64,000 nt of DNA from Polyangiales bacterium. Lineage in GTDB: Bacteria; Myxococcota_A; Polyangia; Polyangiales; Ga0077539. Location: NCBI GenBank assembly GCA_044229975.1, contig JBGARZ010000024.1:64001-128000 (forward strand). The letters run 5' to 3'. The notes under the pieces are model-generated. The model made no database searches, was not told the DNA's origin, and was given only the letters and a program-made list of their open reading frames with translations. Positions 4,667 to 61,418 of this stretch are shown here, in pieces. Numbering within the stretch: position 1 is the first letter of the stretch; each line of letters starts with the position of its first letter. Both the position numbers and the translations under genes were made by a program.

Positions 4667-6471
4667 TCGGGCTGCACCGTACGCAGCTCGCGGTCGCCGT
4701 GGAGGTCGCGGTAGCTGCGGCGCAGGCCGTAGCAGCGCTGGGCGAGCGCGCAACCGTCGCACGCCGACGGGTGGACGAACTCGCCCTGGTCGTAGTCCTC
4801 GGGGATCTCGCCGAGGAGCGCGGGCCGGGCCTCGGCAGGAACAAGGCACAGCGGGATGCCGCACATGGAGTCGAAGCCCCGCACGTCGACCTTGAGGGCG
4901 GACGCCTCGGCGAGCGCGACGAAGAGCTGCGGGAGCACGTCGGCGTAGCGCGGGACGAGGGCGGTGGGCACCACGTCGCTCGACGCGAACACGAAGGACA
5001 CGTTGAGAATCGCCCGCGGCCAGCGCGCGGCCACGAGGCGCACCATCGGGAGCAGCGCGTCGCGGTTGGCGGCCATGAGCACGAAGTTGATGACCAGCGT
5101 GACGTCCTCGTGGCGGTGGAGCTGGTCGAGGCCGAGGAGGGTTTTGACGAAGGTTCCGGGGGACTCGGTGAGGGCGTCGGAGAGCTCGGCGGTGTCGGCG
5201 TGCAGCGAGACCATCACCCACCCAACCCCCGCGGCGACGAGCGCGTCGGTGAGCGCCGGGTCGGCGAGGCGCACGGCGTTGGTCTGGAGCGCCACCACGT
5301 GGGGGCCGTGGGCGCGGGCGAGGGCGACGTACTCGACGAGGCGCGGGTTGAGCGTGGGCTCGCCGCCGGTGAGGCTCACGCGGCGACCGGCGCGGGCGGC
5401 CGTGACGATGGCGTCGCGCACGGCGGCGTCGGTGGCGGGCGGCAGGTGCGTCGACACGAAGCAGAACGCGCACGACTGGTTGCAGTGGAAGTTCACGCGG
5501 ACGAGGGTCTCGTCGACGACCTCGCCGGTGACCTGGTCGGTGTAGCGGCTGGGCTGCGCGAGCTCGCGGCGCACCTGGTCTTCGACCGTGTCGATGAGCG
5601 AGAGCCGACGGCGCACGCGGTCTTCCGTGATGGGGCGCAGCGCGACGCCCGGGTGGCGCGCGAGGTAGGCCGTGGGGACGCCCGGGCAACGATCGCGCAG
5701 CGAGCACCGACTGCAGGGCGGAGGGTGCGCGCGGTCGGCGCGGGGCGCAGCGCCGGGCGTGAGCGCATAGAGGCTCGACACGGCCGCGGGCTGCGGGAAG
5801 AAGCAGGGCGGCGGGCCGCTGTCGGGCGACAGCTTGAACGACAGCCCCGCGCGGCGGGCCGAGGCGTGGGCGGCCGAGAGGGCGGCGCACGCCTCCTCGT
5901 AGGTCACGAGCTGCGAGGGGTCGGGTGACTCCGTGGGGACGCGCACGCGCAGACCGCGCAGCGACGGGCCCAGCGCGTCGACGAGCTGCTCGGGGAGCGC
6001 GCCGAGGGAGTTCAGGGTCGCGCGGATGACCACGGCGGAGACCTCCACCGCCACGCCCGCGGCGAGCAGCGCGCGGATGCCGGCGAGGGTGCGTGCGAAG
6101 CCGCCCGGGTCGCGGGTGATGGCGTCGAGGGCGTCGCCCCAGGCGGTGAGGTTGACCCGCGCGAGGGTGAGCCCGGCGACGTGGAGGGCGCGGGCGCGGT
6201 CGGCGTCGAGGAGGGTGGCGTTGGTCTCCAGCGTGACCTCGGTCGCACCACCTCGACGGGCCTCGGCGATGAGGCCGGGGAGGTCGTTGCGCATCCCGGG
6301 CTCGCCGCCGGAGATCACCACCTCGCGTACCGTCTGCGCGGCGGCGTCACGCAAGCGGGCGAGCACGGCGCCGGTGTGGATCTCCGCGCGCGATTCGGCC
6401 ACCACGCGAACGTTGCAGTAGGTGCAGTTCTGGTTGCAGGTGCGGTGCGTGGTGATGAGCTGTGAGCGCAC
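4663..6471 (-). CDS. Twin-domain radical SAM protein (two HxsC-like domains)
   Basis: CNQNCTYC and CNQSCAFC, two GGEP motifs, two Cx2Cx5C tails; GTG start at 6471 preceded by GGAGG. Confidence 0.9.
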   Translation of the reverse strand: MRSQLITTHRTCNQNCTYCNVRVVAESRAEIHTGAVLARLRDAAAQTVREVVISGGEPGMRNDLPGLIAEARRGGATEVTLETNATLLDADRARALHVAGLTLARVNLTAWGDALDAITRDPGGFARTLAGIRALLAAGVAVEVSAVVIRATLNSLGALPEQLVDALGPSLRGLRVRVPTESPDPSQLVTYEEACAALSAAHASARRAGLSFKLSPDSGPPPCFFPQPAAVSSLYALTPGAAPRADRAHPPPCSRCSLRDRCPGVPTAYLARHPGVALRPITEDRVRRRLSLIDTVEDQVRRELAQPSRYTDQVTGEVVDETLVRVNFHCNQSCAFCFVSTHLPPATDAAVRDAIVTAARAGRRVSLTGGEPTLNPRLVEYVALARAHGPHVVALQTNAVRLADPALTDALVAAGVGWVMVSLHADTAELSDALTESPGTFVKTLLGLDQLHRHEDVTLVINFVLMAANRDALLPMVRLVAARWPRAILNVSFVFASSDVVPTALVPRYADVLPQLFVALAEASALKVDVRGFDSMCGIPLCLVPAEARPALLGEIPEDYDQGEFVHPSACDGCALAQRCYGLRRSYRDLHGDRELRTVQPD

Positions 6472-6499
6472 CGGGCGTTCCTCCGGAAGGGGGGAGCGG

Positions 6500-7738: not shown

Positions 7739-7764
7739 GGGGCGCACGGTACGATGACCCCGCC

Positions 7765-8592: not shown

Positions 8593-8607
8593 GATACGCT
8601 GCGGGTC

Positions 8608-10086
8608 GTGCGCGTCCTGCTCGTCAACCCGCCGCCCCGGATGTTGGTCGACCAGTTCGACACGCCGGACTTCAGCCGCGTGGGACTGGCGTACCTCGCG
8701 GCCATGCTGCGGCGCGACCCGGACTGCGAGGTCGCCATCGTCGACGCGCGGCTCGAACGCCTGCGCCACGCCGACGTGCTCGCACGCGCGCAGAGCTTCG
8801 CGCCGGACGTGGTGGGGGTGACGGCGTTCACCAACGAGGTGAAGGCCGCGGCGCGGGTGGCCCGCGGCATCAAGCGGGCGTCGCCCACGACGGTGACGGT
8901 GATCGGCGGGGCGCACGTCTCGGCGCTGCCCGAGGAGACGCTGGAGGAGTTCGCGGAGTTCGACGTCGGGGTGGTGGGCGAAGGGGAGCACACGCTCGAC
9001 GCGCTGGTGCACGCGCTCGGTCGGAGAGAGCCGCTGGAGGGCATCGCGGGGCTCGTCTACCGCCGCGGGGACTCGACCCACCGCACCGAGGAGCGCGCCA
9101 ACGAGAGCGACCTCGACCGCTTCCCGCGACCCGCGTGGGACCTGCTGCCTGCGGCGCGGCGCGCGTTGCTCGTCACCCAGCGCGGCTGCCCCTACGCCTG
9201 CACCTTCTGCCAGAACCCTGGCGGTCGTCGCGTGCGGCAACACTCGGCGGCGCGGGTGCTCTCCGACATCGACTGGCTCGTGACCCACCAGCGCGTCGAG
9301 GAGCTGCTGGTCTGCGACGAGATCTTCACCGTCGACGCGCCGCGCACCGAGGCGCTGCTCGACACGATGATCGCCGCGAGGGTGGGCGACCGCGTCCGGT
9401 GGTGGGCGCAGACGCACGTCAACACGGCGAGCCGACGGCTCTTCGAGAAGATGCGCGCGGCGGGGTGTTTTCGCGTGGGCCTCGGCATCGAGACGGGCGA
9501 CGCCGACGCGATGCGCGCGATGCACAAGGGCATCTCGCGCGCGAAGGTGCTGGCCGCGCGGCGCATGGCCGCCGAGGCGGGCCTCGCGGTGGAGGGGTTG
9601 TTCATCCTGGGGCACCCCGGCGAGACCTGGGCGAGCGCGATGCGAACGGTGGACTTCGCGGTGGAGCTCGACCCGGAGATCCCGGTGTTTTCGACGATGG
9701 TTCCGTACCCGGGGACGCGCGTGGCGGAGATGGCCGCGAAGGGGGAGGGCGGCTACCGGCTGCTCTCGCGCGACTGGGACGACTACATCAACCAGATCGG
9801 GCACTCGCTGGCCTTCGAGCACCTGTCGCGGCGGCAGATGGAGCTGCTCCAGCTCTACGCGTACCTCAAGGTCTTCGCGGGCAACCGCCGCTGGAGTGAC
9901 CTCGCGCGCTTCGGGTGGACCTACCGCTCCGAGGGGATCGCGGTGGTGCGAAAGCTCTTCTCGGGCGCGATGCCGACGCCCGCGGAGCCCGACGCGGACG
10001 ACACCGCGCGCTTCGAGCGGGCGCCGATGTACTTCGAAGAAGCGACGAAGCGAGCGAGCCGCGTGTCGCTACCGCTGGTGGGCTGA
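8608..10086 (+). CDS. B12-binding radical SAM protein
   Basis: VLLVNPP, GLAYLAA, IGGAHVS cobalamin-binding domain; RGCPYACTFC; GIETG; PYPGT. Confidence 0.93.
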   Translation: MRVLLVNPPPRMLVDQFDTPDFSRVGLAYLAAMLRRDPDCEVAIVDARLERLRHADVLARAQSFAPDVVGVTAFTNEVKAAARVARGIKRASPTTVTVIGGAHVSALPEETLEEFAEFDVGVVGEGEHTLDALVHALGRREPLEGIAGLVYRRGDSTHRTEERANESDLDRFPRPAWDLLPAARRALLVTQRGCPYACTFCQNPGGRRVRQHSAARVLSDIDWLVTHQRVEELLVCDEIFTVDAPRTEALLDTMIAARVGDRVRWWAQTHVNTASRRLFEKMRAAGCFRVGLGIETGDADAMRAMHKGISRAKVLAARRMAAEAGLAVEGLFILGHPGETWASAMRTVDFAVELDPEIPVFSTMVPYPGTRVAEMAAKGEGGYRLLSRDWDDYINQIGHSLAFEHLSRRQMELLQLYAYLKVFAGNRRWSDLARFGWTYRSEGIAVVRKLFSGAMPTPAEPDADDTARFERAPMYFEEATKRASRVSLPLVG

Positions 10087-14073: not shown

Positions 14074-15573
14074 CTACACCTGCGGCAGTCGTCGCCGCTC
14101 GGGCGCCGCGGGGGCAGGCGGGCGGGGCGCTTCGACGGGGTGCTCGGCCTCGGGTCCGTGGTCGAAGGAGTGGGCATCAGCCCCCGGCGCGGGCCCCTTC
14201 CCTGCGACCAGCTTCACGAACACCGGGACCAGCTTGAGCAGCTCGCGCTTGCGCGGCACGAGCCGGGCGAAGCGCGCGATGCGCCGGGGGTCGAGGTAGA
14301 AGCGGAGGTAGGCGTTGCGCTGGATGACCTTGAGCTCATCAGCGGGCACTTCCGACAGGCTGTGGGGGTTGTCGTAGTAGTTGAACTGTCCGCCGTGCAG
14401 GTCCTTCGCGGGGTCGACGTAGGCGTCGGCGAGGGGCGAGCCCTCGAAGGGCGTGACGAGGAAGAAGCCCGCCGAGTGGAGCCTGGAGTCGAGGGCGAAG
14501 CGCACGGTGCTGTCGACCTCGGCGCGGGTCTCGCCGGGGAAGCCCAGCATGAAGAAGCCGTGGGCCAGGATGCCCATGCGGTCGGTGTCCTCGATGAGCT
14601 GGCGCACCTTGTCGATCTTCAGGTGCTTCTTCACCTGCTTCTGGATGCGCGGTGAGGCGCTCTCGATGGCGTAGCTCACGCGCCAGGTGCCGGCGGCCTT
14701 CATCGCCGCGAGCATCTCCAGGTCCATCATGTCGGCGCGCACGCCGTTGGGAAACTGGAGGTCGATCTTCCAGCCCTTCGCCACGATGAGCGCACAGATC
14801 TCCAGCACGCGCTTCTTGTTGAAGTTGAAGATGTCGTCATAGACCTGAAACGACGTCACCCCGTAGCGGGTGATGAGCAGCTCCATCTCCTCGATGACCT
14901 TGGCGGGCGAGCGCGCGCGAAACTTCTTCCCGAAGACGTCGTGGCAGTAGGTGCACTTGAAGGGACACCCGCGCGACGTGGCGATCACCGCCCAGCGCCC
15001 GCGGGTGAGTCGCTCCATGGAGTCGAAGCGCTCGTAGGCGTCCATGTCGATGCGGTCCCAGCTCGGGATGGGCATCGCGTCGAGCTCCTTCACGAGCACC
15101 CGCGGCGGGTTCTGCACCACCAAACCCTCGCGGCGGAAGATGAGCCCGTCGACGCGCGCGGGGTCGCCCTTCACCGCGAGCGCGGTGAGCAGCTCGTGGA
15201 GGGTCTCCTCGCCTTCACCCACCACCGCGTAGTCGACGCTCGGGTCGGCCATCACCGAGCGCGTCGAGCTCGTCGGGTACGGGCCGCCGAGCACCGTCAC
15301 CACGTGCGGCGCGGCCTGCTTGATGAGCTTCGCGAGGGCATGGATGGCGTCGCGCTCGATGGTGAGACCGGAGAGGCCCACCACGTCGGGGCGGTCGGCC
15401 AGGATGCGGCGGCACGCCTGCGCGGGCGTCTCCTTCGCGAGCCGCATGTCGTAGAGGCGGATGTCGTCGTGCCCTTTGGTGCGGAGGTACGCGTCGAGGG
15501 ACATGATCCCCAGCGGGTGGGCGAGGTCATCGACCAGCATCGGCTGGTAGGTCCGGACGAGCGCGAGGCGCAT
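14074..15573 (-). CDS. B12-binding radical SAM protein (paralog of 16614-18185)
   Basis: HPLGIMSL, LGGPY, TSRGCPFKCTYC, FFMLGFPGET. Confidence 0.93.
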   Translation of the reverse strand: MRLALVRTYQPMLVDDLAHPLGIMSLDAYLRTKGHDDIRLYDMRLAKETPAQACRRILADRPDVVGLSGLTIERDAIHALAKLIKQAAPHVVTVLGGPYPTSSTRSVMADPSVDYAVVGEGEETLHELLTALAVKGDPARVDGLIFRREGLVVQNPPRVLVKELDAMPIPSWDRIDMDAYERFDSMERLTRGRWAVIATSRGCPFKCTYCHDVFGKKFRARSPAKVIEEMELLITRYGVTSFQVYDDIFNFNKKRVLEICALIVAKGWKIDLQFPNGVRADMMDLEMLAAMKAAGTWRVSYAIESASPRIQKQVKKHLKIDKVRQLIEDTDRMGILAHGFFMLGFPGETRAEVDSTVRFALDSRLHSAGFFLVTPFEGSPLADAYVDPAKDLHGGQFNYYDNPHSLSEVPADELKVIQRNAYLRFYLDPRRIARFARLVPRKRELLKLVPVFVKLVAGKGPAPGADAHSFDHGPEAEHPVEAPRPPAPAAPERRRLPQV

Positions 15574-16613: not shown

Positions 16614-18185
16614 GTGCGAATCGCCCTGATCCGAACCTATCAGCCGCAGATGGTCGACGACGTGGCGCACCCGCTGGGGATCATGGCGCTGGACGCCTTC
16701 CTGCGGACCAAGGGCTACGACGACGTCCACCTGTTCGACATGCGCCTCAAGCGGGAGACGCCGTCGCAGGTGCTCGACCGGGTGCTCGCGCTCAAGCCCG
16801 ACGTGATCGGCCTCTCCGCGCTCACCATCGAGAAGGACACGGTCCACAAGCTGGCGGGGCTCATCAAGCAGCGCGCGCCGCGCGTGCGGGTCGTCCTCGG
16901 CGGGCCCTACGGCACCAGCTCGACGCACACGGCCATGCGCGACCCGGCCATCGATTTCATCGTCGTCGGCGAAGGGGAGTTCACCTTCCACGAGCTGCTG
17001 GAGTCGTTCGAGTCCGGGGCCGACCCCTCCTCCGTGCAGGGCATCCTCTACCGCGAGGCGGGGGAGGTGCGGCAGACGCCCGAGCGGCCCTTCGTGCAGG
17101 ACCTCGACGTGCTGCCCATCCCGAGCTGGGACCGCATCGACATGGCCGAGTACCAGCGCATCGGCTGCGTCGACCACATCACGCGCCGCCCCTGGGTCGT
17201 CTTCTACACGTCGCGCGGGTGCCCCTTCAAATGCACCTACTGCCACGACGTGTTCGGGAAGAAGTTCCGCGCGCGCTCGCCCGCCAGGGTCATCGAGGAG
17301 ATGGAGCTGCTCTACACGCGCTACGGCGTGCGGGAGTTTCATTTCTATGACGACATCTTCAACTTCAACAAGAAGCGCGTCCTGGAGATCTGCCGGCTCA
17401 TCCAGGAGAAGCGCTGGAAGATCGACCTGCAATTCCCCAACGGCGTGCGCGCCGACATGATGGACCTGGAGACGCTCACGGCGCTGAAGGCCGCGGGCAC
17501 GGTGCGGGTCAACTACGCCATCGAGACGGCCTCGCCCCGCATCCAGAAGCAGGTGAAGAAGCACCTGAAGATCGAGAAGGTGAAGCAGCTCATCGAGGAC
17601 ACCGACCGGATGGGCATCCTCTCGCACGGGTTCTTCATGCTGGGCTTCCCCACCGAGACCCGCGAGGAGGTGATGGCCACCATCGAGTGGGCCTGCGCCT
17701 CGAAGCTCCACACCGCGGCCTTCTACCTGGTGTGCCCCTTCGAGGGGACGCCCCTCTCGGACGCCTACGTGGGCCCGGCCAAGGGCGAGAAGGGCAACGA
17801 CTGGCAGTACTACGACAACCCGCACAGCATGTCGGAGGTGCCCGCGGCGGAGCTGAAGAAGATCCAGCGCGACGCCTACCTGCGCTTCTTCACCAACCCG
17901 TGGCGGATGTACCGCTTCCTGTGGTTGCTGCCCGACAAGCTGGCGATGAAGAAGTTCGTCCCGATCTTCCTCAAGATCATCGCGAGCGGGTTCAAGGTCC
18001 ACGGCGCCGACGAGAAGTCGTGGGACCACACGCCGGAGGCCATCGACACCATCCTCGCGTCGCGCCGCCCGATGGACACCGAGGAGCCCGAGGGCGTGCC
18101 CGCGCCCGCCCCTGCGGCGGACGTCATCAAGCTGCGGCCCCGGAAGCAGCCCGCAGGCGACGCGCCGACCAAGCCCACCGCCTGA
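16614..18185 (+). CDS. B12-binding radical SAM protein (paralog of 14074-15573)
   Basis: HPLGIMAL, TSRGCPFKCTYCHDVFGKKFRARSP identical to the paralog; GTG start after AGGAGAGG. Confidence 0.93.
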   Translation: MRIALIRTYQPQMVDDVAHPLGIMALDAFLRTKGYDDVHLFDMRLKRETPSQVLDRVLALKPDVIGLSALTIEKDTVHKLAGLIKQRAPRVRVVLGGPYGTSSTHTAMRDPAIDFIVVGEGEFTFHELLESFESGADPSSVQGILYREAGEVRQTPERPFVQDLDVLPIPSWDRIDMAEYQRIGCVDHITRRPWVVFYTSRGCPFKCTYCHDVFGKKFRARSPARVIEEMELLYTRYGVREFHFYDDIFNFNKKRVLEICRLIQEKRWKIDLQFPNGVRADMMDLETLTALKAAGTVRVNYAIETASPRIQKQVKKHLKIEKVKQLIEDTDRMGILSHGFFMLGFPTETREEVMATIEWACASKLHTAAFYLVCPFEGTPLSDAYVGPAKGEKGNDWQYYDNPHSMSEVPAAELKKIQRDAYLRFFTNPWRMYRFLWLLPDKLAMKKFVPIFLKIIASGFKVHGADEKSWDHTPEAIDTILASRRPMDTEEPEGVPAPAPAADVIKLRPRKQPAGDAPTKPTA

Positions 18186-34274: not shown

Positions 34275-35585
34275 CTACGCGATTGGCACCGTTCGCGCGC
34301 GCTGTGCGAGCGCCTCGACGACGCGCGCCACGACCGGGCGAGCCAGATCGACCGTCGCCCCGTCGGCCAGCCGGAAGTCCACCGCCGCACCCGTCTTCCC
34401 TCCCGCGCCCGGCGGCAAGAACACCACGTCCAACCGCTCGCCCCCGCTCGCCCGCAGCGGCAGCACGGTCTCGTCCGCGCCGTCCTGCACCGGCTCGGTC
34501 GACCACCCCGCGAAGCCGCCCACTCCGTGCAGCGCCCGCGCGAGCTTCACCGCCCGCCGACGCGCCCGCTGCGCCTTCAGCGCGTCTTCGGTCACGGCGC
34601 GAAACTCGTCCTCGCCGTGCAGCGCCAGGTACTCGCCGTAGACCCCGCTGCACTTCTCGCGGAACACACAACCCACGCAGCCCGCGGGGTGCCTTCGCAT
34701 CGAGTAGTGCCACTCGTACTTGTCGACGGCGACCTCCAGCCCTTCGGTGTCGCAGGCCTGCGTGACGGTCTCCTCGCCGCCATGGTGCACGCGGTCGGCC
34801 CACTCGGGGATCACGCAGTACGGCAGGTTGCCCACGTTGACGTCGAAGCCCGGCTGCTCGGCCTCGAAGGCTTCGAGCATCGCGCGGAAATACGGCGCCA
34901 TGTCCGTGTAGCGCGGCATGATCTCGCGGAGGTACGCGTCGTCGCGCTCGCCCGTGGAGCTCGGCCGCACGATGTCGAGGTGGAGCTGCGCGAGCCCGTG
35001 CTCGGCCACGAGCGCGGGGAAGTCCGGCAGCGAGCGGTAGCTGTTCTCGTTGACGCAGAGGTTGGCCGTCACGCGTTGTTTGAGCGCCGCGAGCGCGCGC
35101 AGCCCGAACTCGATGCGCTTGAACGAGTCTGGCCGCTTGGTGACCGCGACGTGGGCGGCCTCGTTGCCGCCTTGGATGGACACGCGCCACTCGACGCGCG
35201 GCCCCAGCGCCACCACCCGCTCGATGAACCCGGGATGCGGGAACATCACCCCGTTGGTGAAGATGATGACCTCCTCGAAGCCGAGGTCGACGGCGTGGGC
35301 GACGGCCTCGTGGAAGCCCTTGTGGAGCGTGGGTTCGCCGCCGAGGAAGGTGATGCGCCGGGCGCCCGAGGCGCGCGCCTTGTCGAGGGCCTCGATGATG
35401 GGCGCGAGGGCGATGGGCCGGGCGACCTTCCACTCCGAGAGCTGCCCGCTCGAACAGAACACGCATCGGTTGTTGCAGAGGTGCCCGAGCTGGAGCTCGA
35501 ACTGGTGCCCCGTCCCGGTCGCGGTGACCGTGGTGGCCTCGTCGCGCAGGCGATCGAGCACGGGCAGCACACGTCGGGTCGCCAT
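34275..35585 (-). CDS. HxsC-like radical SAM protein with C-terminal extension
   Basis: CNNRCVFC, LGGEPT, NLPYC, CVGCVFREKC. Confidence 0.92.
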   Translation of the reverse strand: MATRRVLPVLDRLRDEATTVTATGTGHQFELQLGHLCNNRCVFCSSGQLSEWKVARPIALAPIIEALDKARASGARRITFLGGEPTLHKGFHEAVAHAVDLGFEEVIIFTNGVMFPHPGFIERVVALGPRVEWRVSIQGGNEAAHVAVTKRPDSFKRIEFGLRALAALKQRVTANLCVNENSYRSLPDFPALVAEHGLAQLHLDIVRPSSTGERDDAYLREIMPRYTDMAPYFRAMLEAFEAEQPGFDVNVGNLPYCVIPEWADRVHHGGEETVTQACDTEGLEVAVDKYEWHYSMRRHPAGCVGCVFREKCSGVYGEYLALHGEDEFRAVTEDALKAQRARRRAVKLARALHGVGGFAGWSTEPVQDGADETVLPLRASGGERLDVVFLPPGAGGKTGAAVDFRLADGATVDLARPVVARVVEALAQRARTVPIA

Positions 35586-42292: not shown

Positions 42293-44236
42293 ATGGCTTC
42301 TTCCGAGGTGCGGATCAACCTCTTCCACGGCGACCGGCTGGAGTACCGCTTCTGCACGCCCACCTGGCGCCAGACCCGGCGCGCGGTGCCGCTCGCCGAG
42401 GTGCTCGAACAGGTCGAGGCCGTCGACGCCCGCCGCTGCCAGCGGCTGCTGCTGGGCGAGTCGGCCCTCGCGCACCCGGACTTCGACCGCATCCTCGCCC
42501 GCTGCAAGGAGCGCGAGCTCAAGGGCATCGCCGTCGAGACCGACGGCCGCCCGCTCACCGCCCCGCTGCTCGCCTCGCTCAAGGAGCGCGGCGTCGAGAA
42601 GCTCTTCGTGGTGTGCGGCGGCGCGCGGCGCAGCGTCCACGAGCAGACCATGCAGGACCCCGGGTGCTTCATGGAGGCCATGGACGGCCTGAAGCGCGCG
42701 GCCGCGAGCGGCATGGCGCTGTACGTCATCGTTCCGGTGCTGCGCTGGACGGTGCGCGACCTCGACCCGCTGCTCGAATGGGCCCGCGCGCTCGACGGCT
42801 CGCTCAAGGGTTTCCTGCTGGCGCTGCCCGAGACGGGGCAGGTGCCCGCGCCGATGCACAAGGTGCTGCTCTCCTACGCCGAGCAGGCCGAGGCCGCGCG
42901 GCGCGTCTTCGATGAGTGCCGCCGGTGGAAGATCGAGTGGGGCTTCACCACGCGGCGCGGCGTGCTCCCGTGCGCGGCGGGCGGGGCGCTCGACCGCTTC
43001 GGGACGGTGTTCTTCGACCGCATCACGTACCTGCGGCACGCGCCGGCGGAGGAGTTCGCGCGCGTCGCGGCCTGCGAGACCTGCTCGATGAACCAGTCGT
43101 GCCCGGGCATCGAGCCCGCGTACGTCGAGGCGTTTGGTGCGGAGGGCCTCGCGCCCATCCCGCTCGATGTCTCCATGGACTGGAACCTCAAGCGCGCCAA
43201 CACGCTGGAGAAGCGCGACTTCAAGAACGTCTCGGACTTCGACAACGACACCGAGGGCAACGGCCGCGCGCTGCTGCGCATCAACGGCCACTGCAACATG
43301 TCGTGCGCGTTCTGCTTCGTGGACCGCACGGTGCCCGACTTCGACGCGGAGGACATCCTCGGGCAGATCGAGCGCATGGCGAAGCGCGACCCGTCGCACC
43401 TGGTGCTGTCGGGCGGCGAGCCCACGCTGCACCCGGCGCTCCCGCGCTTCATCGCCCGCGGCAAGGAGCTCGGCTTCCGCACCATCGAGATCCAGACCAA
43501 CGGGGTGAAGGCCGCGGTGCCCGAGTACGCCAAGGTGCTCGCCGACGCCGGGCTCTCGAAGATCACGGTCTCGCTGCACTCGGTCGACCCCGAGCAGTCC
43601 GACAAGATCACGCGTCTGCCGCAGGCCTTCGGCAAGACCATCACCTCGATGCACAACTTCCGTCAGCTCGGGGTGCTGACGCAGATCGCGCACGTCATCA
43701 CCAAGGCCAACTTCGAGGAGCTGCCCAACACGGTGCGCTTCCTGCGCGAGGAGTTTCCCGAGGACGAGGGGCACCTCAGCATCTGCTTCGGCGTGGCGCA
43801 GCCCATCAGCGACCTCGTCTACACGTGGGTCATGCCGCGCTTCGACGAGATCAAACCGTTCATGAAGGCGGCGCTCGACTACTGCCTGGAGACCCGCGTG
43901 GGCTTCGGCGGAATGATCGGCCAGGGCGGATACCCGCCGTGCATGCTCGACGGCGACCTCCGCTACTACGAAGGCAACATCCGCAACATCTACCGATCGG
44001 CCGACTGGCAGGACCAGTTCTACAAGGCCGACCGCTGCAAGGAGTGCAGCTTCGACCCGTACTGCGTGGGCGTCCGCCGCCTCTACGTGGAGACCTACGG
44101 CGACGCGGAGATCGTTCCCTTCAAGGCCGACATCGAAGAGCCCACCAACGCCACCATCGTCGAGGCCCCGGTGGTCACCGACGGCGCCCTGGTCACCCTC
44201 CGCCGCCGCAAGAACGACGCGGCCCCGCAGCCGTGA
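42293..44236 (+). CDS. Twin radical SAM protein (N-terminal domain lacks CxxxCxxC)
   Basis: C-terminal domain CNMSCAFC, SGGEPT, QTNG; both halves end in Cx2Cx5C. Confidence 0.9.
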   Translation: MASSEVRINLFHGDRLEYRFCTPTWRQTRRAVPLAEVLEQVEAVDARRCQRLLLGESALAHPDFDRILARCKERELKGIAVETDGRPLTAPLLASLKERGVEKLFVVCGGARRSVHEQTMQDPGCFMEAMDGLKRAAASGMALYVIVPVLRWTVRDLDPLLEWARALDGSLKGFLLALPETGQVPAPMHKVLLSYAEQAEAARRVFDECRRWKIEWGFTTRRGVLPCAAGGALDRFGTVFFDRITYLRHAPAEEFARVAACETCSMNQSCPGIEPAYVEAFGAEGLAPIPLDVSMDWNLKRANTLEKRDFKNVSDFDNDTEGNGRALLRINGHCNMSCAFCFVDRTVPDFDAEDILGQIERMAKRDPSHLVLSGGEPTLHPALPRFIARGKELGFRTIEIQTNGVKAAVPEYAKVLADAGLSKITVSLHSVDPEQSDKITRLPQAFGKTITSMHNFRQLGVLTQIAHVITKANFEELPNTVRFLREEFPEDEGHLSICFGVAQPISDLVYTWVMPRFDEIKPFMKAALDYCLETRVGFGGMIGQGGYPPCMLDGDLRYYEGNIRNIYRSADWQDQFYKADRCKECSFDPYCVGVRRLYVETYGDAEIVPFKADIEEPTNATIVEAPVVTDGALVTLRRRKNDAAPQP

Positions 44237-48855: not shown

Positions 48856-51206
48856 CAGCCGAGCACGTTGAGCCGACGACGCGAGTCGACCTCCACCAGG
48901 GGCCGGTCGAGGTCTTCCGGGTGCACGAGCCACGGCGGCTCGGGCACATCATCGAGCTCGTAGAACCCACCGCAGAACACCGCGTGCGGACACGTCGCGC
49001 AGACGGGCTTCTTCACGCGGCGCGCGGCGAGGTAGTCGCCGAGGTTCACGTCCTCGTTGTTCACGAAGATCATGTGCCGCGAGAGCTTCAGCAGGTCGCC
49101 CATCATGAAGCGCTCGTACCCGGGCATGAAGCAGAACGGCAGGTTGATCACCTGGAACTTCATCCGATCGCCCCAGCGATCCATCACCGCCATCGCCGCG
49201 TTGGCGGCCGTCTGGGTGTCGGGCGAGATCCACTTCGTCGCGCGCCCGAAGGGCGTCAGGAACTGGATGTTGAGCCACCGCAGCCCAAGGTCCCACGCGA
49301 GCTGGGTGACCGCTTCGAGGTGCGCGGTGTTGCTCTTGGTGAGGGTGATGTTCATGCCGAGCTCGACGCCCGGCGGCGCGTGCTTCACGCAGTAGCGGAT
49401 CCCCTGCACGGTCTGCTCGAAGGCTTCGGCGACACCGACCTGCTGGGCGTGCGACTGGGCGTCGTGGCCGTGCACGCTGAAGAGCAGCGTGGTGAGCCCC
49501 GAGCGCACGAGCGAGCGCGCGAACTTCTCGTAGACGCAGAGGCGCCCGTTGGTGGTGACGTTGACGCGCTCGTAGCCGATGCTGCGCGAGTACTGCACCA
49601 GCGGGATGAGCTCGGGGTTGAGCGTCGGCTCGCCGCCGTCGAAGTCGACCATGGTGACGCCCTGCGCGCGGTACCGGTCGAGGTGCTCGCGCTGCCGCGT
49701 CGGGTGCCCATCGACCTGCGTGCGCGTGCCCACCGCGCAGAACGTGCAGCGGTTGTTGCACACGTAGGTGACGTTCATGATGACCTTCTGCGGGCCTTCC
49801 ACGGCGCGCATGCGCTCCTCGAAGGTCCAGCGGAAGCGGGCGAGCTCCTCGGGCGTGACGCTCATCCCCGGCTGGCTCGGCGTCATCTGGAAGCGCGGCC
49901 CCCAGTCGTCCACCACGGGCAGCGATCGCCCGCGCGCGAGGTCGGTGCCCGGCAGCGGCGTCGCGTACTGCACCGCGGGCCAGGCGCCGTGGTCTTCGTA
50001 GAGTTCCATCGCGAAGCGCAGGGTCTCGTTGATCTCCTCGGCGCTCTCCCCGGGCAGCCCGATGATGTAGTGGACCATCAACGGCACGCCCGCGGCCTTG
50101 GCGCTCTGCGCGGCGCGCACGATGGCCTTGAGGTCGAGCCGCTTCTTCACCACCTCGGTGACGACGCGCTGCGAGCCGCTCTCGGCGCTCACGCTCACGG
50201 TGTTCACGAGGCCGCGCATGCGCGCGAAGTGCTCGGGTTCGAGGTAGTCGGCGCGCATCCCGTTGGGAACGTCGAAGCGCACCCCGAGCGCCGTCACGCC
50301 ATCGAGAAAGCCATCCCAGTGCCGCTCGTTGACGTTGATGAGCTCGTCGAGCACCTCCAGCCGCGACGCCCGGTGGGTCTTCACCATCGTGTCGAGGTAG
50401 GCCCGCAACCGCGCCGCCGAGTAGCGCCGCTGGGTCTTCGGCTCACCCAGCTCGCGCCCCGGGTTGGAGCTGCAATGAACGCACGTAAACGGGCACCCGC
50501 GCGAGGTCACCATCGGCAGCGTTCGGCCGTCGATGGGGAAGGCCCACGCGCCGCGCCCGAGGTCGCCCACCATGCTGGCGCAGAAGCGGTCGTGCGCGTT
50601 GAGGTCGACGAGATCCCACGCGGGGAAGGGGAGGGCGTCGAGCGACGACGGGCTCTCTCCGCGGTGCGCTCCGCGGATGGACTCACCGCGACCGAGCGCC
50701 GCGAGCAGCGCGGGCACGGTGACCTCAGCCTCGTACTTCACCCACGCGTCGGCCTCGGGGTAGCTCGCGAGCACGGCCGCGCCGTCGGCTTCGACGTAGT
50801 GCTGGCCCGACTGGTAGGCGTCCGCGAGCACCAGCGCCGCCGTCGGCAGCATCGCGCGCAGCCCCGTGAGCAGGGCACCGAGCACCTCGTCGCGACCCGG
50901 TGGCCGATGAAACGGCGTGTACGCCACGACCACCGCCGCGGGCTTCTCTCCCGCGGCGATGGCGGCCCGCACCGTCGCGAGCAGCGTCTCCACGGGGACG
51001 CCCAGCAGGGCCCGGTCGTCCGCGCGCCAGCGCAGCGCGGCGCCCGGCGTGGCGAAGGCGTCGACGAGGGTGACGGGGTGCCCGAGCTCGCGCAGCACGG
51101 CCGCAAGCTGCACGGCGCCGAGGTCGCTGAAGTACGGGTAGTCGATGAAGTCCCGCGCCACGCTCACGGGCGGATGCAGCACCAGCGTGGCGACCGGGTG
51201 GCTCAT
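48855..51206 (-). CDS. Fusion: B12-binding radical SAM plus HxsC-like radical SAM
   Basis: VLHPP...LGAVQLAA, TSRGCPFTCVHC, IGLPGE, PLPGT; then CNNRCTFC, GGEPT, NLPFC, CATCPHAVFC. Confidence 0.9.
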   Translation of the reverse strand: MSHPVATLVLHPPVSVARDFIDYPYFSDLGAVQLAAVLRELGHPVTLVDAFATPGAALRWRADDRALLGVPVETLLATVRAAIAAGEKPAAVVVAYTPFHRPPGRDEVLGALLTGLRAMLPTAALVLADAYQSGQHYVEADGAAVLASYPEADAWVKYEAEVTVPALLAALGRGESIRGAHRGESPSSLDALPFPAWDLVDLNAHDRFCASMVGDLGRGAWAFPIDGRTLPMVTSRGCPFTCVHCSSNPGRELGEPKTQRRYSAARLRAYLDTMVKTHRASRLEVLDELINVNERHWDGFLDGVTALGVRFDVPNGMRADYLEPEHFARMRGLVNTVSVSAESGSQRVVTEVVKKRLDLKAIVRAAQSAKAAGVPLMVHYIIGLPGESAEEINETLRFAMELYEDHGAWPAVQYATPLPGTDLARGRSLPVVDDWGPRFQMTPSQPGMSVTPEELARFRWTFEERMRAVEGPQKVIMNVTYVCNNRCTFCAVGTRTQVDGHPTRQREHLDRYRAQGVTMVDFDGGEPTLNPELIPLVQYSRSIGYERVNVTTNGRLCVYEKFARSLVRSGLTTLLFSVHGHDAQSHAQQVGVAEAFEQTVQGIRYCVKHAPPGVELGMNITLTKSNTAHLEAVTQLAWDLGLRWLNIQFLTPFGRATKWISPDTQTAANAAMAVMDRWGDRMKFQVINLPFCFMPGYERFMMGDLLKLSRHMIFVNNEDVNLGDYLAARRVKKPVCATCPHAVFCGGFYELDDVPEPPWLVHPEDLDRPLVEVDSRRRLNVLG

Positions 51207-54302: not shown

Positions 54303-55307
54303 ATGCGGCCGACGACCCCGACGATGCTCCCACCCCGCGCCACGCTCTCCCTGCTCACCGACTGCGACAACCGCTGCGTGTTCTGCGCGCCCGACGGGCT
54401 CCCCGCGGCCGCCCCGCGCGAGCTCGACGCCGTCGTCGCCGACCTCGACGCCCTCCGTGCACGGCACACCGCGATCACCTTCACGGGCGGCGAACCCACG
54501 CTCCACCCCGCGCTGCCCGCCATCGTCGCCGCGGCGCGCGCTCGCGGCTTCACCCACGTCGGGCTCCAGTCCAACGGCCGTCGCCTGCGCGAGCACCACT
54601 ACGCCAACGCCTTGCGCGACGCGGGCCTCACCGACGTCCACCTCTCGCTGCACGGCCTCGGATCAACCATCCACGACCACCACACGGGCGTCGAAGGCAG
54701 CTTCGCCGAAGCCTTCGACGGGCTCGCCGCCGCCCGCCACGCGGGCCTCACCATCGTCGTGACCACGGTGCTCACGCGCTCCAACGCGCGCTCCCTCACC
54801 GCGCTCGCCCCGTGGCTCGCCGCGCAGTCCGTCGCCGCGTGGTCCGTCGCCGTGCCCCGCACCGCGGGCCGACTCTTCGCCAGCTTCGACCGGGTGTTTC
54901 CGCGGCTGGCGATGGCGATGCCGCACGCGCTGCACGCGCTCTCGGCGGCGCAGCAGAAGGGCGTCGTCCCCTTCCTGCGCGGAGCGCCGCTGTGCCTGCT
55001 CGGCCCCTTCGCGGCGCGCAGCCTCCCTGTCGCGACTGGAGCCTTCGCCCCGCAACCCTGCGGCACCTGCCCGGCCCGCGCGTGGTGCCCCGGCGTCGAC
55101 GCCCGCTACCTCAAGCGCTTCGGCGGCGACGAGCTCTCCGCAGCGCGCGCCCCCACCTCTCCCGCAAAGCCCTTCACGGCTCGCGAAGAGTCGCTCGCGG
55201 TGATGTTCGTGGGGGAGGGGCCCGGCGGTCCGGAGCCGGCCGGGGTAGAGTCGGCGCCGACGGGCGCTACGCGGGTGGCGTTGCCGATCGTGCGCGAGGG
55301 CGCGTAG
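54303..55307 (+). CDS. HxsC-like radical SAM protein
   Basis: CDNRCVFC, TGGEPT, QSNG, APLC, CGTCPARAWC. Confidence 0.92.
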   Translation: MRPTTPTMLPPRATLSLLTDCDNRCVFCAPDGLPAAAPRELDAVVADLDALRARHTAITFTGGEPTLHPALPAIVAAARARGFTHVGLQSNGRRLREHHYANALRDAGLTDVHLSLHGLGSTIHDHHTGVEGSFAEAFDGLAAARHAGLTIVVTTVLTRSNARSLTALAPWLAAQSVAAWSVAVPRTAGRLFASFDRVFPRLAMAMPHALHALSAAQQKGVVPFLRGAPLCLLGPFAARSLPVATGAFAPQPCGTCPARAWCPGVDARYLKRFGGDELSAARAPTSPAKPFTAREESLAVMFVGEGPGGPEPAGVESAPTGATRVALPIVREGA

Positions 55308-55318
55308 ACCGAGGACGC

Positions 55319-56551
55319 ATGGCGAACATCGGGTACATCCAGGTCGTCCGGCACTGCAATCACTTCTGCGGGTTCTGCTCCAACCCGACGACGCCGTACG
55401 TGCACACCTTCGAGACGATGAAGGTGCTCGTCGACGACCTCGTCGACCGCAACTACTTCGGGGTGATCCTGACGGGCGGCGAGCCGTCGCTTCATCCCGA
55501 GCTGCCGCGCATCGCGCGCTACGCCTCCGACCGCGGGCTGCACGTGCGCATGATCACCAACGGGTGGCGCATGGCCGACCCGGCCTTCGCGAAGGAGATG
55601 GCCGAGGCGGGGCTGAAGCTCGTGCACGTGTCGGTCTACTCGGTGCGGCCCGACGTCGAGGAGAAGCTGCGCGGCACGCCCGGCACCGTGGAGCGGGCCT
55701 TCGCGGCGATCGAAAACGCCAACCGCTACGGCATCGACGTCAACATCAACTGCGTCATCAACAAGCTCAACGCCGACCACCTCGACGAAAACATCCGCCA
55801 CTGGATCACGCACCACCCGTACATCCGGCACTTCGTCTGGAACAACCTCGACCCCTCCATGGGTCGCGCCGAGGTCAACCAGGCCGAGTACACCCCGCGG
55901 CTCGCCGACTTCGAGGTGTCGCTCCACCGCGCGCTGAAGCTCCTCCACCAGAGCGGCCGCACCTTCCGCGTGGAGAAGGTCCCGCTCTGCTACATGGCGG
56001 AGTTTGCGTGGGCGAGCACCGAGACCCGCAAGATCGTGAAGGGCGAGGAGCGCATCGTTCACTTCCTCGACGCCAAGCAGACGGTCCGGCAGACCGACTG
56101 GGAGCACATCTACTCGGACGGCTGCTCGGTCTGCTCGCTACGCACCATCTGCGGGGGTCTCTTCGACCGCGGCAACGCCTACGACCCCGGCGAGCTGTAC
56201 CCGGTGTTCATCGACCGCGACGCCGTCGTCGAGAAGATCATCCACGACCCGCGCGACCCCAGCTACGAGTTCCGCTCCATGGACGCGTGGCGGGCGGACT
56301 TCGAGCGCCGCGTCGCCGAGGCCCGCGCCGCTGGCAATCGCCGCCCATTGCCGATGCACGGCGACCAGCCGCCCGAGCACATGACCCCGCCCAACGCCCC
56401 CGCCGTGGGGCAGATCACCGAACAGGGGCTCCGACTCTTCGAATCCAAACGCAATTCCGAAGGAAAGAAGGCCGCTCAGATCGGTATCTCCCTCGAACGG
56501 ATGGAAGTGCAGATCCCGGTCAATCCCCCATTGACCAAGACCGACCCATGA
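55319..56551 (+). CDS. HxsC-like radical SAM protein
   Basis: CNHFCGFC, TGGEPS, ITNG, VPLC, CSVCSLRTICGG; GAGGA RBS. Confidence 0.93.
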   Translation: MANIGYIQVVRHCNHFCGFCSNPTTPYVHTFETMKVLVDDLVDRNYFGVILTGGEPSLHPELPRIARYASDRGLHVRMITNGWRMADPAFAKEMAEAGLKLVHVSVYSVRPDVEEKLRGTPGTVERAFAAIENANRYGIDVNINCVINKLNADHLDENIRHWITHHPYIRHFVWNNLDPSMGRAEVNQAEYTPRLADFEVSLHRALKLLHQSGRTFRVEKVPLCYMAEFAWASTETRKIVKGEERIVHFLDAKQTVRQTDWEHIYSDGCSVCSLRTICGGLFDRGNAYDPGELYPVFIDRDAVVEKIIHDPRDPSYEFRSMDAWRADFERRVAEARAAGNRRPLPMHGDQPPEHMTPPNAPAVGQITEQGLRLFESKRNSEGKKAAQIGISLERMEVQIPVNPPLTKTDP

Positions 56552-57760: not shown

Positions 57761-59638
57761 TCACTCGGCGTCGGCGAGCACCGGCTGCATCAGCTCGTAG
57801 CCGTGCGCGCGGATGTAGTTGATGTGCATGCCGTCGCAGCGCGACGCGTGGACGCACGGCTTGCAGCGGAGCGACTTCGCCTTGTAGCGGTCGACGATGT
57901 ACCGCTGGATGTAGCGGAAGATCTCGAGCTGCCCGTCGGGGGTCATCATCGACGCGTCGAGGGTCTTCACCGGCTCGCGCGGCGTACGCCCGATCACGCA
58001 CGCCGGAACCCCCTCCACCGGGACATCACCCGCAAAGCGCTCGAAGAACGCCCGCAGGTCGACGTCGTACGCCTGGGCCTCGCTCATGCGCTCGTAGGTC
58101 GGCTGGAAGAGCGCCAGCCGTGACGGCACCGGCCCCGCTGCGGCGAGCGAGAGCAGCCACGGCTCGTTGGCCTTCGTGAGCGCGACGGCCACCTCGAAGT
58201 CACCCGGCATCGCCAGCAGCGCCTCGGCCTGCGCAGCCTTCGACGCGATCGCCCGCGTCACCCGCCACGGGACGTCCGAGCGTCCAGACGTCCAGACGTC
58301 TAGACCACTGAAGTCCGCGAGCTCGAGCTCCACCTCGGTGAGCGTCGGGTGCAGCGCGATCTCGGCGAGCGCGGCCGTCACGTCCGGCGCCACCACCCAG
58401 AGCTTGCGCGCCTGCGCCTCGACGGCGAGCGCCCCGGGCGCCACCGTCGCGATCGCGGTCGACGCCTTGGCGCTCTGCCCCAGCACCGGCAGCCGGAGCT
58501 TGGCCCGCGACGAGTCCACGGTGACGTCCTGGCCCTGCGCCTCGACCACCGCGTCGCCCTCCGGAAGCGCCGTGAGGCCGCCTTCCGCGAGCTGCGCCTC
58601 GATGGCCCGCGCCCGCTTGCTGCTGGCCGGATCGCCACCCCAGATGGGCCCCTGCTTCTTCTCCCAGGCGACGTCGACGCGGAGCCGCGCGAAGTCGCGC
58701 TGGATCACGTTGTCGCGCACGCCGTAGAGGGTGTCGCAGACGTTCTGGAGGTAGCAGAGCTTGCAGCGCGAGGGCTCGCGGCAGTCGAGGTCGACGCCCT
58801 CGGTGAGCAGCCGGTGGAACTCCTCCTTCCGCCCCTTGGCCTCGTCGTTGAGCTTGTACGGGTCCTGGATGAGCGACTCGTAGCCTTCGAGGTGCTGCAC
58901 CGGGAAGCGGTTGAGCCAGATGTGCACGTCGGGCCGCTTGGAGAACGCGAAGGCTTCGAGCAGGTACGGGCGCATCTCCTCGAGGTCGTAGAAGAGGATG
59001 TCCTTCCCTTCCTTGAACGCGTTGCCGAAGGGGATCACGTGCAGCAGGTCGTACTCGCGCACGCCCATCGCGATGAACTTCTCAAGGATGGTCTTGAGGT
59101 GCTTCACGTTGCCACGGTTGATCACCACGTCGATGTTCACGATGGGACGGCCGTCTTCGAGCGCGTACTGGAGCCCCTGCACCTCCTGCTCGAACGCGCC
59201 CTTCGCGCCCACGAGCGCGTCGTGGATGCGCGCGTTGGGGCCGTGGATGGAGAACGTGATCTCGTCGAGACCCGCGTCGAGGCAGCGCTGCAAGAAGGCC
59301 TTGTAGGAGAACGCGCGGCCGTTGGTGACGGTCTGGATCTTCCGGTACTTCGCGGCCTTCCCGAGGCGGATGAAGTCCACGTAGTTGGGGTGCATCGTGG
59401 GCTCGCCGCCGGAGAGGATGAGCCGCTGCGCGCCCTTCTTCGCCCCGTCGAGGATCTGCTGCTTCACCTCGTCGCGGTCACGCATCTGCCCGTCGTGCGT
59501 GAGCGTGTCGAGGCAGAAGACGCAGTGGTTGTTGCAGTCGAAGGTGAGGCGCACCCAGTTGCGCTTCTCGTGCGCGGCGTCTTCGTGTTCGAGCAGCTTC
59601 TCGTCGAGGCCCGCGTCTGGGTTCTGCACCGTCAACAT
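57761..59638 (-). CDS. HxsC-like radical SAM protein with degenerate second domain
   Basis: CNNHCVFC, SGGEPT, VTNG, CKLCYLQNVC; C-terminal VPAC and CKPCVHASRC. Confidence 0.92.
   Translation of the reverse strand: MLTVQNPDAGLDEKLLEHEDAAHEKRNWVRLTFDCNNHCVFCLDTLTHDGQMRDRDEVKQQILDGAKKGAQRLILSGGEPTMHPNYVDFIRLGKAAKYRKIQTVTNGRAFSYKAFLQRCLDAGLDEITFSIHGPNARIHDALVGAKGAFEQEVQGLQYALEDGRPIVNIDVVINRGNVKHLKTILEKFIAMGVREYDLLHVIPFGNAFKEGKDILFYDLEEMRPYLLEAFAFSKRPDVHIWLNRFPVQHLEGYESLIQDPYKLNDEAKGRKEEFHRLLTEGVDLDCREPSRCKLCYLQNVCDTLYGVRDNVIQRDFARLRVDVAWEKKQGPIWGGDPASSKRARAIEAQLAEGGLTALPEGDAVVEAQGQDVTVDSSRAKLRLPVLGQSAKASTAIATVAPGALAVEAQARKLWVVAPDVTAALAEIALHPTLTEVELELADFSGLDVWTSGRSDVPWRVTRAIASKAAQAEALLAMPGDFEVAVALTKANEPWLLSLAAAGPVPSRLALFQPTYERMSEAQAYDVDLRAFFERFAGDVPVEGVPACVIGRTPREPVKTLDASMMTPDGQLEIFRYIQRYIVDRYKAKSLRCKPCVHASRCDGMHINYIRAHGYELMQPVLADAE
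58274..58305. repeat. Intragenic tandem 8-bp array
   Basis: GTCCGAGC-GTCCAGAC-GTCCAGAC-GTCTAGAC. Confidence 0.8.
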
Positions 59639-59721
59639 ACCGTTCCGTAGCTCCTGCGGGCGTTAGAGAGGGGATTGCAACACAAGCCGCGATCAGAGGC
59701 CATGCACGTTCCGGTGCGCGC

Positions 59722-60645
59722 TCAGGCCACGGGCCTGAACTCGTCCTCGCCGTGCACCGCGAGGTAGTCGCGCCGCAATCCGTTGCAGCGTGATCGATGA
59801 CGGCATGGCGCGCAGCCCGGTAAAAAGTACCCACCCTCGATGGGCGAGTCGGCCAGGTCGAAGGCGTGCCCGCCAGGGTTCACCACGCGCATGCCGAAGC
59901 CCGCCGCGTCGAAGAGCGCGCCGTGCAGCGCCTCCGGCAGCACGCACGCCGGCGTGTGCAGCGACACCAGCTCTGCATCGGCGTTGGCCGCGACGGCCGC
60001 CACCAGCGCCGGGACGACGTCGCTCATCCGCGGAACCTCCGCCCGCACCGCAAGGTCATCGCGCGCCTGATCGATCGCCGAGAGCAGCCACACGCGGAAG
60101 TGCCGCGCGCCCCAGCTCAGGCCCAGCGACACCATCGCGGGCAGCTCGGCGGCGTTGCTCGCGGTGATGAGCAGGTCGCCCTCCAGGGTGATGCCCGCCT
60201 CGCGAACGGCCTCAGCGCCGCGCGCCATCAGGTCGAAGCAGCCGTCGGTGCGAGCGATGCGGTCGTGCGTGGCGGCCGAGGCGCCCTTCATCGAGAGCGC
60301 GACCTCGGTGATGCCGGCGTCGGCGCAGCGCCGCGCATAGCCGGGATAGGCGAGCATCATCCCGTTGGTCTGCAGCTTCACCCGCGCGTAGCCGAGGCGA
60401 CGGCCCATCGCGGCGATGCGGAAGATGTCCTTGCGAAGCGTGGGTTCACCGCCGCCCAACCAGAGACAGTCGGCGCCGTCGGCGCGCCCTTGTTGGAGCG
60501 CGCGAACGACCTCCGCATCGGTCATCGCAGGACCATCGTCCTGGACGGCGAAGCAGCCGATACAGCGGTTGTTGCAGCGATAGTCGGGGGTGAGTTCGAC
60601 CCAGTGGAGTCGACGCAGACGGTGGCCTTCAGGCCGCGCGATCAC
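59722..60645 (-). CDS. HxsC-like radical SAM protein, translationally coupled to the precursor
   Basis: [35 protein letters not shown] overlaps the precursor TGA. Confidence 0.92.
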
Positions 60646-61418
60646 CAGCTCCCGTGCGAGCCGTGCGACCCGTGCGACCCGTGCGAGCCGTGGCTGCCGT
60701 GCGAGCCGTGCGAGCCGTGCGACCCGTGCGAGCCGTGGCTGCCGTGCGAACCGTGCGAGCCGTGTGAACCGTGCGAACCGTGCGAGCCGTGCGAACCGTG
60801 CGAGCCGTGGCTGCCGTGCGAACCGTGCGAGCCGTGCGAGCCGTGCGACCCGTGGCTGCCGTGCGAACCGTGCGAGCCGTGCGAACCGTGCGAGCCGTGC
60901 GAACCGTGCGAGCCGTGCGAACCGTGCGAGCCGTGGCTGCCGTGCGAACCGTGGCTGCCGTGCGAGCCGTGCGAGCCGTGGCTGCCGTGCGAACCGTGCG
61001 AGCCGTGCGACCCGTGCGAACCGTGCGAGCCGTGCGAGCCGTGCGAGCCGTGTGACCCGTGCGAGCCGTGCGAGCCGTGTGACCCGTGCGAGCCGTGTGA
61101 CCCGTGGCTGCCGTGCGAGCCGTGCGAGCCGTGTGACCCGTGCGAGCCGTGCGAGCCGTGCGAGCCGTGGCTGCCGTGCGAGCCGTGCGACCCGTGCGAG
61201 CCGTGCGACCCGTGCGAACAGTGCTGGGCGCCGCGCTGGTCATCATCCGGCTCGCCCATCGGGAGCTTCGGACGGTTGGCCGCCTCTTCGCCAGCACGAT
61301 CGGCCAGCTCACGCTCCTGGGTGGAGAGTGTGTCCGCAGCCGAGCGCTTGAACGACGGGAGCTCGTCGTCGCTACCGCTGTCGTCTGCGTCGTCCAGATG
61401 GTCGTCGGCGCCTGTCAT
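60642..61418 (-). CDS. His-Xaa-Ser repeat precursor peptide (HxsA-like): 65-aa acidic leader, HCS, (HGS)x63, W
   Basis: Single 258-aa ORF with GAGG RBS between hxsB and an HxsC-like gene; variation among HGS units is synonymous only. Confidence 0.92.
60648..61223 (-). repeat. Coding tandem repeat, 64 x 9 bp
   Basis: 576 nt of CAC-GGN-(TCG/AGC/TCA) units; first unit CAC-TGT-TCG. Confidence 0.95.

Follow-up and report, generated by a model that had tools for sequence, protein, structure and literature searches.

The stretch of DNA analysed here (the window) comprises 64,000 nucleotides of the Polyangiales bacterium assembly GCA_044229975.1 (contig JBGARZ010000024.1, forward-strand positions 64,001 to 128,000) and contains a large His-Xaa-Ser (Hxs) cluster. 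The HxsA4 precursor, HxsB, an HxsD-like protein and HxsD were all recognized above the NCBIfam cut-offs (Table 1), and 17 radical S-adenosylmethionine (SAM) proteins are encoded in the window. An earlier note, made from the letters of the window, had described a short motif, R-x-x-L-P-hydrophobic, in the precursor leader and in many enzymes, and had read it as a docking tag gathering enzymes and substrate on a scaffold such as HxsD. All 12 quoted peptides were present: they translated as given, at or adjoining the positions where they had been reported, and each lay in frame within a called gene, with the reservation that gene calling relied on our own codon model and some start positions are possibly wrong. 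Eleven of the 12 sites lay in radical SAM proteins and the remaining one in the precursor. The analysis of this genome and its relatives indicated that the motif is a real feature which had been misassigned, and that it is a good candidate for a bacterial iron-sulfur (Fe-S) client signal. It consists of an [RK]-rich stretch followed by L-x-hydrophobic-hydrophobic, has a second form L-V-x-L-R-R-R, and marks the termini or linkers of about a quarter of the scored Fe-S proteins.

Within the window, the evidence depended on how the pattern was written. Counted over 47 proteins, the precursor excluded, the literal R-x-x-L-P-hydrophobic form gave 6 matches, where the rest of the proteome predicts 2.3; as 21 of 200 shuffles equalled or exceeded this number, the form was dropped as too weak. 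The looser [RK]xxL[PNS]hh gave 10 matches against 1.7 expected, which none of 200 shuffles reached, but it had been picked post hoc, after the sites were known. The motif was matched by 10 of the 17 radical SAM proteins and by only 3 of the 30 other window proteins, two of these inside the core of 2-oxoglutarate oxygenases. HxsB, the HxsC-like protein at 59722, HxsD and the HxsD-like protein gave no motif score. The motif is dense in the Hxs cluster because the cluster encodes so many radical SAM proteins.

The window sites are real, and the independent test, made outside the window, was strongly positive. A position matrix was trained on the 12 window sites only and scored on the 30 residues at either end of proteins encoded elsewhere. 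Proteins with a PF04055 match or a ferredoxin cysteine pattern formed the Fe-S class, and N-terminal matches resembling lipoproteins or signal peptides were removed by a hydrophobicity heuristic before counting. Outside contig C30, termini scoring at least 10 were found in 12 of 50 Fe-S proteins and in 31 of 4695 other proteins (p=5.5e-15), an enrichment that is understated, since other Fe-S families fall into the second class. The middle 60 residues, scored as a control, gave 1 Fe-S and 25 other matches, and shuffled Fe-S termini gave, over 300 rounds, 0.6 matches on average and never more than 3. Chance, which the earlier note had wished to see excluded, did not account for the motif as a class: it was not equally frequent in unrelated proteins.

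The tagged housekeeping proteins included LipA (C-terminal HRSLPVVP) and MiaB (C-terminal RRVALPVVQA), the identities of which were both confirmed, together with RlmN (KRKLPVF) and MoaA (MTVSLPMLR), which were tagged by the matrix and named by reading their sequence motifs. RimO, named in the same way, ended in KKRVALRVTAG, a tag below the threshold. Among the 31 matches in other proteins, Pfam identified a CCG/Fer4_8 protein, Mrp (C-terminal KRLPIIR) and a ferrochelatase, and two more had cysteine motifs and no family; the other 26 were unrelated proteins, a number near chance level. Some bacterial ferrochelatases, that of Myxococcus xanthus included, are described as carrying a [2Fe-2S] cluster (PMC8529089). 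Nine extra proteins, picked by hand from lower scores or other lists, included ThiC, a phosphoadenosine phosphosulfate (PAPS)-reductase-family protein and a Rieske protein according to Pfam. The second form, in which basic residues stand behind the core (LVTLRRRK, VIKLRPRK), was present at the termini of 4 of 77 Fe-S and 12 of 4735 other proteins, window included, with a regular expression drafted once the examples were known. Strong terminal tags were also observed on three unannotated proteins, L005 (C2:280511-281581), L013 (C20:345632-346159) and L022 (C32:595461-597398). Two of them have cysteine motifs and, judging from these, are candidates for unrecognized Fe-S proteins; the third, L013, contains no cysteine and appears to be a membrane protein.

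In related genomes, the position of the tag changed within single protein families. The LipA tag was N-terminal in some families (RHLPVLG, RVHLPVV, RKLRVL; scored in the 45 residues upstream of the core, with no start calling) and C-terminal in others (RKRLSVVT, and HRSLPVVP as in this genome, both ending the protein). In MiaB, the N-terminal tag was of the second form (LVQLRR, LVTLGKR) and the C-terminal one of the first (RVSLPIM, RRVSLPV), while the Mrp tail in most cases read K/R-R...L-x-x-I-R/K. Such a shift between the N- and C-terminus within one family is the behaviour expected of a portable tag. By comparison, 3 of 226 tails of non-Fe-S neighbours in the relatives scored at least 7. 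The tag was also present on LipA or MiaB of relatives in which HxsB had no match, among them G006, G018, G029, G048 and G057.

The conservation of individual window sites, proposed in the earlier note as a check, was uneven. The linker of protein 57761-59638 was the best-supported case: 28 of 30 homologues, itself included, scored at least 6, the leucine was kept in 29 and the proline in 27 of the 30, and the flanking columns were mostly gaps, so that the motif forms a conserved island. Residues 355-391 of this protein, motif included, were modelled by AlphaFold with a predicted local distance difference test (pLDDT) value below 50. The sole homologue found for site 5593 shows RRRLTVV at the equivalent position, and three of five open reading frames (ORFs) homologous to the protein with site 55272 carry RRLPVL or LRLPVL near the C-terminus, the other two being short ORFs. 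The GRSLPVV at about 49920 was kept in 7 of 9 homologues; it lies directly behind the PGT motif at the barrel end and is probably structural rather than a tag. Two distant homologues (41%) of the protein with site 38455 showed no clear match, and no homologue was found in the 20 related stretches fetched for sites 10060 (at identities of at least 38%), 14077, 33471 and 35556. A motif that is accessible, disordered and conserved was found at site 58481 and in the Mrp tail, and not at sites 56339, 48861 and 61257. A count at any position in related clusters (22 of 63 against 6 of 138) was inflated by a structural strand ahead of the CxxxCxxC motif and was not relied on.

Table 1. Motif sites and selected genes of the Hxs cluster, in window coordinates.
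Feature	Coordinates	Strand	Context
RRRLSLI	5593..5613	-	Linker joining two radical SAM domains, gene 4663-6717
RVSLPLV (then G and stop), C-terminal	10060..10080	+	B12-binding radical SAM enzyme 8608-10086
RRRLPQV (then stop), C-terminal	14077..14097	-	B12-binding radical SAM enzyme 14074-15573
VIKLRPRK, second form (hydrophobic, then basic)	18123..18146	+	C-terminal tail of B12 radical SAM enzyme 16614-18185; absent from the earlier list
RPRLPMV	33471..33491	-	Directly ahead of the ferredoxin domain in a ferredoxin/carbamoyltransferase/radical SAM fusion, 30576-34262
RRVLPVL, N-terminal	35556..35576	-	HxsC-like radical SAM enzyme 34275-35585
PRRLPML	38455..38475	-	Linker from radical SAM to Gfo/Idh/MocA domain, gene 37456-40407
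LVTLRRRK, second form	44189..44212	+	C-terminal tail of double radical SAM enzyme 42293-44236; absent from the earlier list
RRRLNVL (then G and stop), C-terminal	48861..48881	-	Double radical SAM enzyme 48855-51206
GRSLPVV	49911..49931	-	Directly behind the PGT motif at the radical SAM barrel end
RVALPIV, C-terminal	55272..55292	+	HxsC-like radical SAM enzyme 54303-55307
RRPLPMH	56339..56359	+	Past the core of radical SAM enzyme 55319-56551
KLRLPVL(G), best-supported tag	58481..58501	-	Disordered linker of HxsC-like protein 57761-59638
RPKLPM	61257..61274	-	Leader of HxsA4 precursor
HxsA4 precursor	60642-61418	-	NF038313
HxsB	61509-63002		TIGR03978
HxsD-like protein and HxsD	62999-63744		NF038315 and TIGR03976
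ParA-family ATPase	3977-4666		Above cut-off
Small protein	37108-37452		No family match
TatA	51337-51597

Several further features of the cluster were observed. The HxsA4 precursor has 63 H-x-S triplets past its first cysteine, against 8-19 in 14 relatives. Related precursors were found in 14 of 30 hxsB loci, and their leaders share [ED]LP-x-[FY] and QREIS, which are likely the true maturase recognition sites. The homologues of the enzyme at 55319-56551 show [LV]-x-[PA]-V-G-[RQK]-[VIL]-T behind a variable linker, from about residue 362 on, where this genome shows RRPLPMH; that segment may be a docking element or structural. The ferredoxin/carbamoyltransferase/radical SAM fusion protein is 1228 residues long, and the ParA-family ATPase, the small protein and TatA lie inside the cluster. 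A second HxsB-type locus is located on another contig of this genome, G000 (C20:550667-553769).

The Fe-S biogenesis genes of G000 were then compared with the occurrence of the tag. Besides an isc operon and a separate ErpA, the genome encodes Mrp, a small NifU-like protein and a fusion of Grx4 to a degenerate A-type domain; no match to sufB was found in this genome, which is 93% complete. ErpA (C32:323935-324258, 107 residues) matched NF010147 with 127.6 bits against a cut-off of 117, its cysteines C35, C99 and C101 were invariant in 30 sequences, and its best PDB match was HI1723. ErpA is acidic, with a net charge of -4 to -9. Of 61 genomes in the class, 36 had an ErpA orthologue (at least 59% identity). 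Among 58 of the 61, LipA reached a matrix score of at least 7 in 18 of 36 with ErpA and in none of 22 without; for MiaB, the numbers were 7 of 32 and 1 of 23. A two-form regular expression matched LipA or MiaB in 35 of 36 genomes with ErpA and in 2 of 24 without; the background is about 4% and 10% per protein. In G048, which has an ErpA-type carrier only, the proteins were tagged, whereas G003, G016 and G027, with IscA-type carriers only, were untagged. The LipA tag follows the ErpA orthologue better than it follows HscA, IscA or the DUF59 domain of Mrp. A complex prediction for the ErpA dimer and the 40-residue linker 58433-58552 gave scores of 0.08 and 0.12, where 0.32 was the mark, with controls that were unfolded, and was used neither for nor against binding.

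Three side observations concern the same genes. Ahead of the isc operon (G000 C38:981264-986712) lies a gene for a MerR-like regulator with a cysteine-rich C-terminus and an N-terminal MAIRLPIAIP resembling the tag; this regulator is not the Rrf2-type RisR of PMC9973013. The N-terminus of HscA reads MALLQI in both this genome and Escherichia coli and resembles the second form. Protein L395 (G000 C11:569511-570443) combines Grx4 (CGFS), a cysteine-less A-type domain and a rhodanese domain, and a BolA-like gene adjoins it.

The enrichment on Fe-S proteins across the genome, the disorder in two AlphaFold models, the one conserved linker island, the terminus shifts of LipA and MiaB, and the co-occurrence with ErpA were observed. 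We consider it highly likely that the motif has a role in Fe-S maturation. That it is a position-independent tag of Fe-S clients, bound by the A-type carrier ErpA before cluster handover, is the reading that we favour with some reserve, and ErpA is its rather probable reader, by putative direct binding. The basic, hydrophobic peptide exposed on the apo-protein would dock to the acidic ErpA, probably as an added extended strand. Docking would tether the apo-protein and bring holo-ErpA to the empty site; Mrp, with an equal tag at its end, would dock at the same site of ErpA and may act as a relay partner. Clients without the tag would be contacted via other surfaces, like most clients of the eukaryotic cytosolic iron-sulfur assembly (CIA) system, which are without its targeting complex recognition (TCR) motif (PMC10623007, in part).

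Comparison with E. coli provided an additional lead. In strain K-12, the C-termini of LipA (MEVK), RlmN (IDIK), IspG (IDVQ), IspH (VDIR), IscR (IDVK), TtcA (LNVV) and Mrp (ISFR) (L344, L345, L366, L367, L368) resemble MDIK, the active core of cyclo-SMDIKG, which in a 2026 screen was reported to bind ErpA with a KD of 4.3 uM (PMC13450390, in part). The main text of that paper mentions neither IspG, RlmN nor mimicry (0 occurrences). The result shows binding of ErpA to a short hydrophobic-x-hydrophobic-K peptide, a form that the E. coli tails resemble; the compound is synthetic and cyclic and has an acidic second residue, unlike the basic motif described here. The pattern [IVLM][DENS][IVF][KRQV] matched the ends of 7 of 14 E. 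coli Fe-S proteins and 1 of 85 neighbours. It is possible, and is offered tentatively, that the motif belongs to a general position-independent code of Fe-S clients for which ErpA-type carriers are the readers and which varies in dialect between lineages, with RRLPVL and LVQLRRR here and I-D-I/V-K tails in E. coli; the latter tails might then be the natural ligands mimicked by the antibacterial cyclo-SMDIKG, and a host tag on a foreign Fe-S enzyme might improve its maturation.

A number of results weigh against an ErpA-read client tag. Most Fe-S proteins are without it, namely 38 of 50 outside C30, among them aconitase, an SdhB-like protein, most Rieske proteins and HxsB. The two-form regular expression was itself built post hoc from tagged examples. 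On a FastTree phylogeny of 55 MiaB proteins, the ErpA label changes just five times, once at a genome that is 74% complete, which leaves about four independent contrasts; with so few changes, any co-inherited factor or lifestyle could yield an equal pattern. In other classes of the phylum, LipA (25 proteins) scored at least 7 in 2 of 18 cases with a carrier and in 0 of 7 without one, and matched the regular expression in 6 of 18 (three of them doubtful) and 0 of 7, respectively. G037 (86% complete) has a tag-like Mrp tail and no carrier match. At the level of single sites, RRPLPMH at 56339 was present in 1 of 30 homologues, i.e. in this genome alone, and the C-terminal site 48861 had no match scoring at least 8.5 in nine homologues. 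RPKLPM of the precursor was found in none of the 14 related leaders, and this copy is probably incidental. With regard to E. coli, the genes and the pattern were chosen with their tails already known, so the count is biased and serves as a lead, not a test, and these tails are acidic and not basic as in this genome. In addition, a matched tag is no strict requirement, since IspG proteins of foreign origin were loaded in vitro by E. coli ErpA (PMC8896826, in part).

The competing explanation that survives best is a tag for Fe-S maturation or repair with another reader, such as the DUF59 domain of Mrp, HscA or DnaK, IscA, the Grx4 fusion with its degenerate A-type domain, or a protein co-inherited with ErpA; we judge it unlikely, although clearly ahead of the remaining ones. 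The Fe-S enrichment alone names no reader, IscA, HscA and long-form Mrp are also found in most tagged genomes, and a hydrophobic core with basic flanks resembles Hsp70 sites. HscA reads LPPVK in IscU (PMC13066941, in part), but a site of this type would require HscA in the genome, and the tagged genomes G029, G040, G048 and G057 (97-100% complete) had no HscA match over the cut-off. DnaK-like matches were found in 61 of 61 genomes regardless of the tag. In the tagged G006 and G018, Mrp has 25-29 residues ahead of the P-loop, too short for DUF59, and in an AlphaFold model of Mrp the tail (pLDDT 42-50) did not dock on the protein's own DUF59 domain, which as a monomer model argues weakly. The Grx4 fusion was full length in just 16 of 61 genomes, and the genomes with IscA-type carriers only were untagged, as noted above.

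It is improbable that the motif is a degron or adaptor site through which Lon or Clp clears apo or oxidized Fe-S proteins in oxygen-exposed lineages. Terminal, disordered, basic-hydrophobic peptides suit protease signals. The A-type carriers of E. coli are themselves reported as Lon substrates (PMC12974527, in part). However, the motif is also located in internal linkers and at either end, it tracks the presence of ErpA, and general degrons are not expected to be confined to Fe-S proteins, whereas non-Fe-S termini were near chance (31 matches against 25 in the middle-region control).

The model of an HxsD-like scaffold on which the Hxs enzymes and the HxsA precursor dock was largely refuted. 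The density of the motif in the window fits this model, and for an enterobacterial system a pull-down showed binding of HxsD to HxsC (PMC13128918, in part). Yet the motif is neither confined to proteins of the Hxs cluster, as housekeeping Fe-S proteins carry it and it also occurs in genomes with no match to HxsB, nor conserved in the precursor leader, and HxsB, the 59722 protein and most non-Fe-S tailoring enzymes gave no score. A shared short tag was supported, and recruitment to an Hxs scaffold was not. A compositional artefact of Arg-, Leu-, Pro- and Val-rich tails in a genome of 72% GC, for which the non-significant literal pattern, the 26 unrelated termini and the non-conserved sites speak, is equally remote and is refuted for the class by the shuffled and middle-region controls, the neighbour tails and the island at 58481, although it may hold for the single sites 61257 and 56339.

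The client tag that we propose can be compared with known systems. In eukaryotes, the CIA motif TCR, [LIM]-[DES]-[WF]-COO-, is present on about a quarter of Fe-S clients and recruits the delivery machinery (PMC10623007, in part). The motif described here is likewise a short peptide on about a quarter of the scored Fe-S proteins; unlike the TCR motif, which is a tripeptide confined to the C-terminus and recognized by Cia1/Cia2/Met18, it is basic, lacks an aromatic end, occurs at either terminus or in linkers and has an A-type carrier as its proposed reader, so it does not belong to that class. The LPPVK site of IscU is also a short L-P peptide of Fe-S biogenesis, but it is located on the scaffold and not on clients, and tagged genomes can be without HscA. 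Although the window is a His-Xaa-Ser cluster, in which HxsD pairs with HxsC, the motif is no part of that system. A further likeness is with the client-facing carriers: ErpA is thought to perform the last step of delivery, client proteins are reportedly bound by NfuA through its degenerate A-type domain, and G000 encodes a true ErpA. The passages on ErpA and NfuA in PMC11327457 and PMC8593673 describe no sequence motif in clients, and a 2021 review (one of these two) states that transfer assays revealed no substrate specificity. In the open literature, subscription papers and supplements not covered, we found no bacterial Fe-S client motif and none pairing RRLPV with radical SAM proteins.

How a few bacterial carriers locate their many Fe-S clients is regarded as an open question (PMC8593673, in part). 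Eukaryotes are known to use a targeting peptide in the cytosol, and our searches turned up no bacterial counterpart. If true, the proposed tag would predict unrecognized Fe-S proteins, explain the recently found inhibitor of ErpA, and offer a means of rescuing radical SAM enzymes that mature poorly in foreign hosts. It would help to explain the choice of the proteins that receive Fe-S clusters in bacteria.

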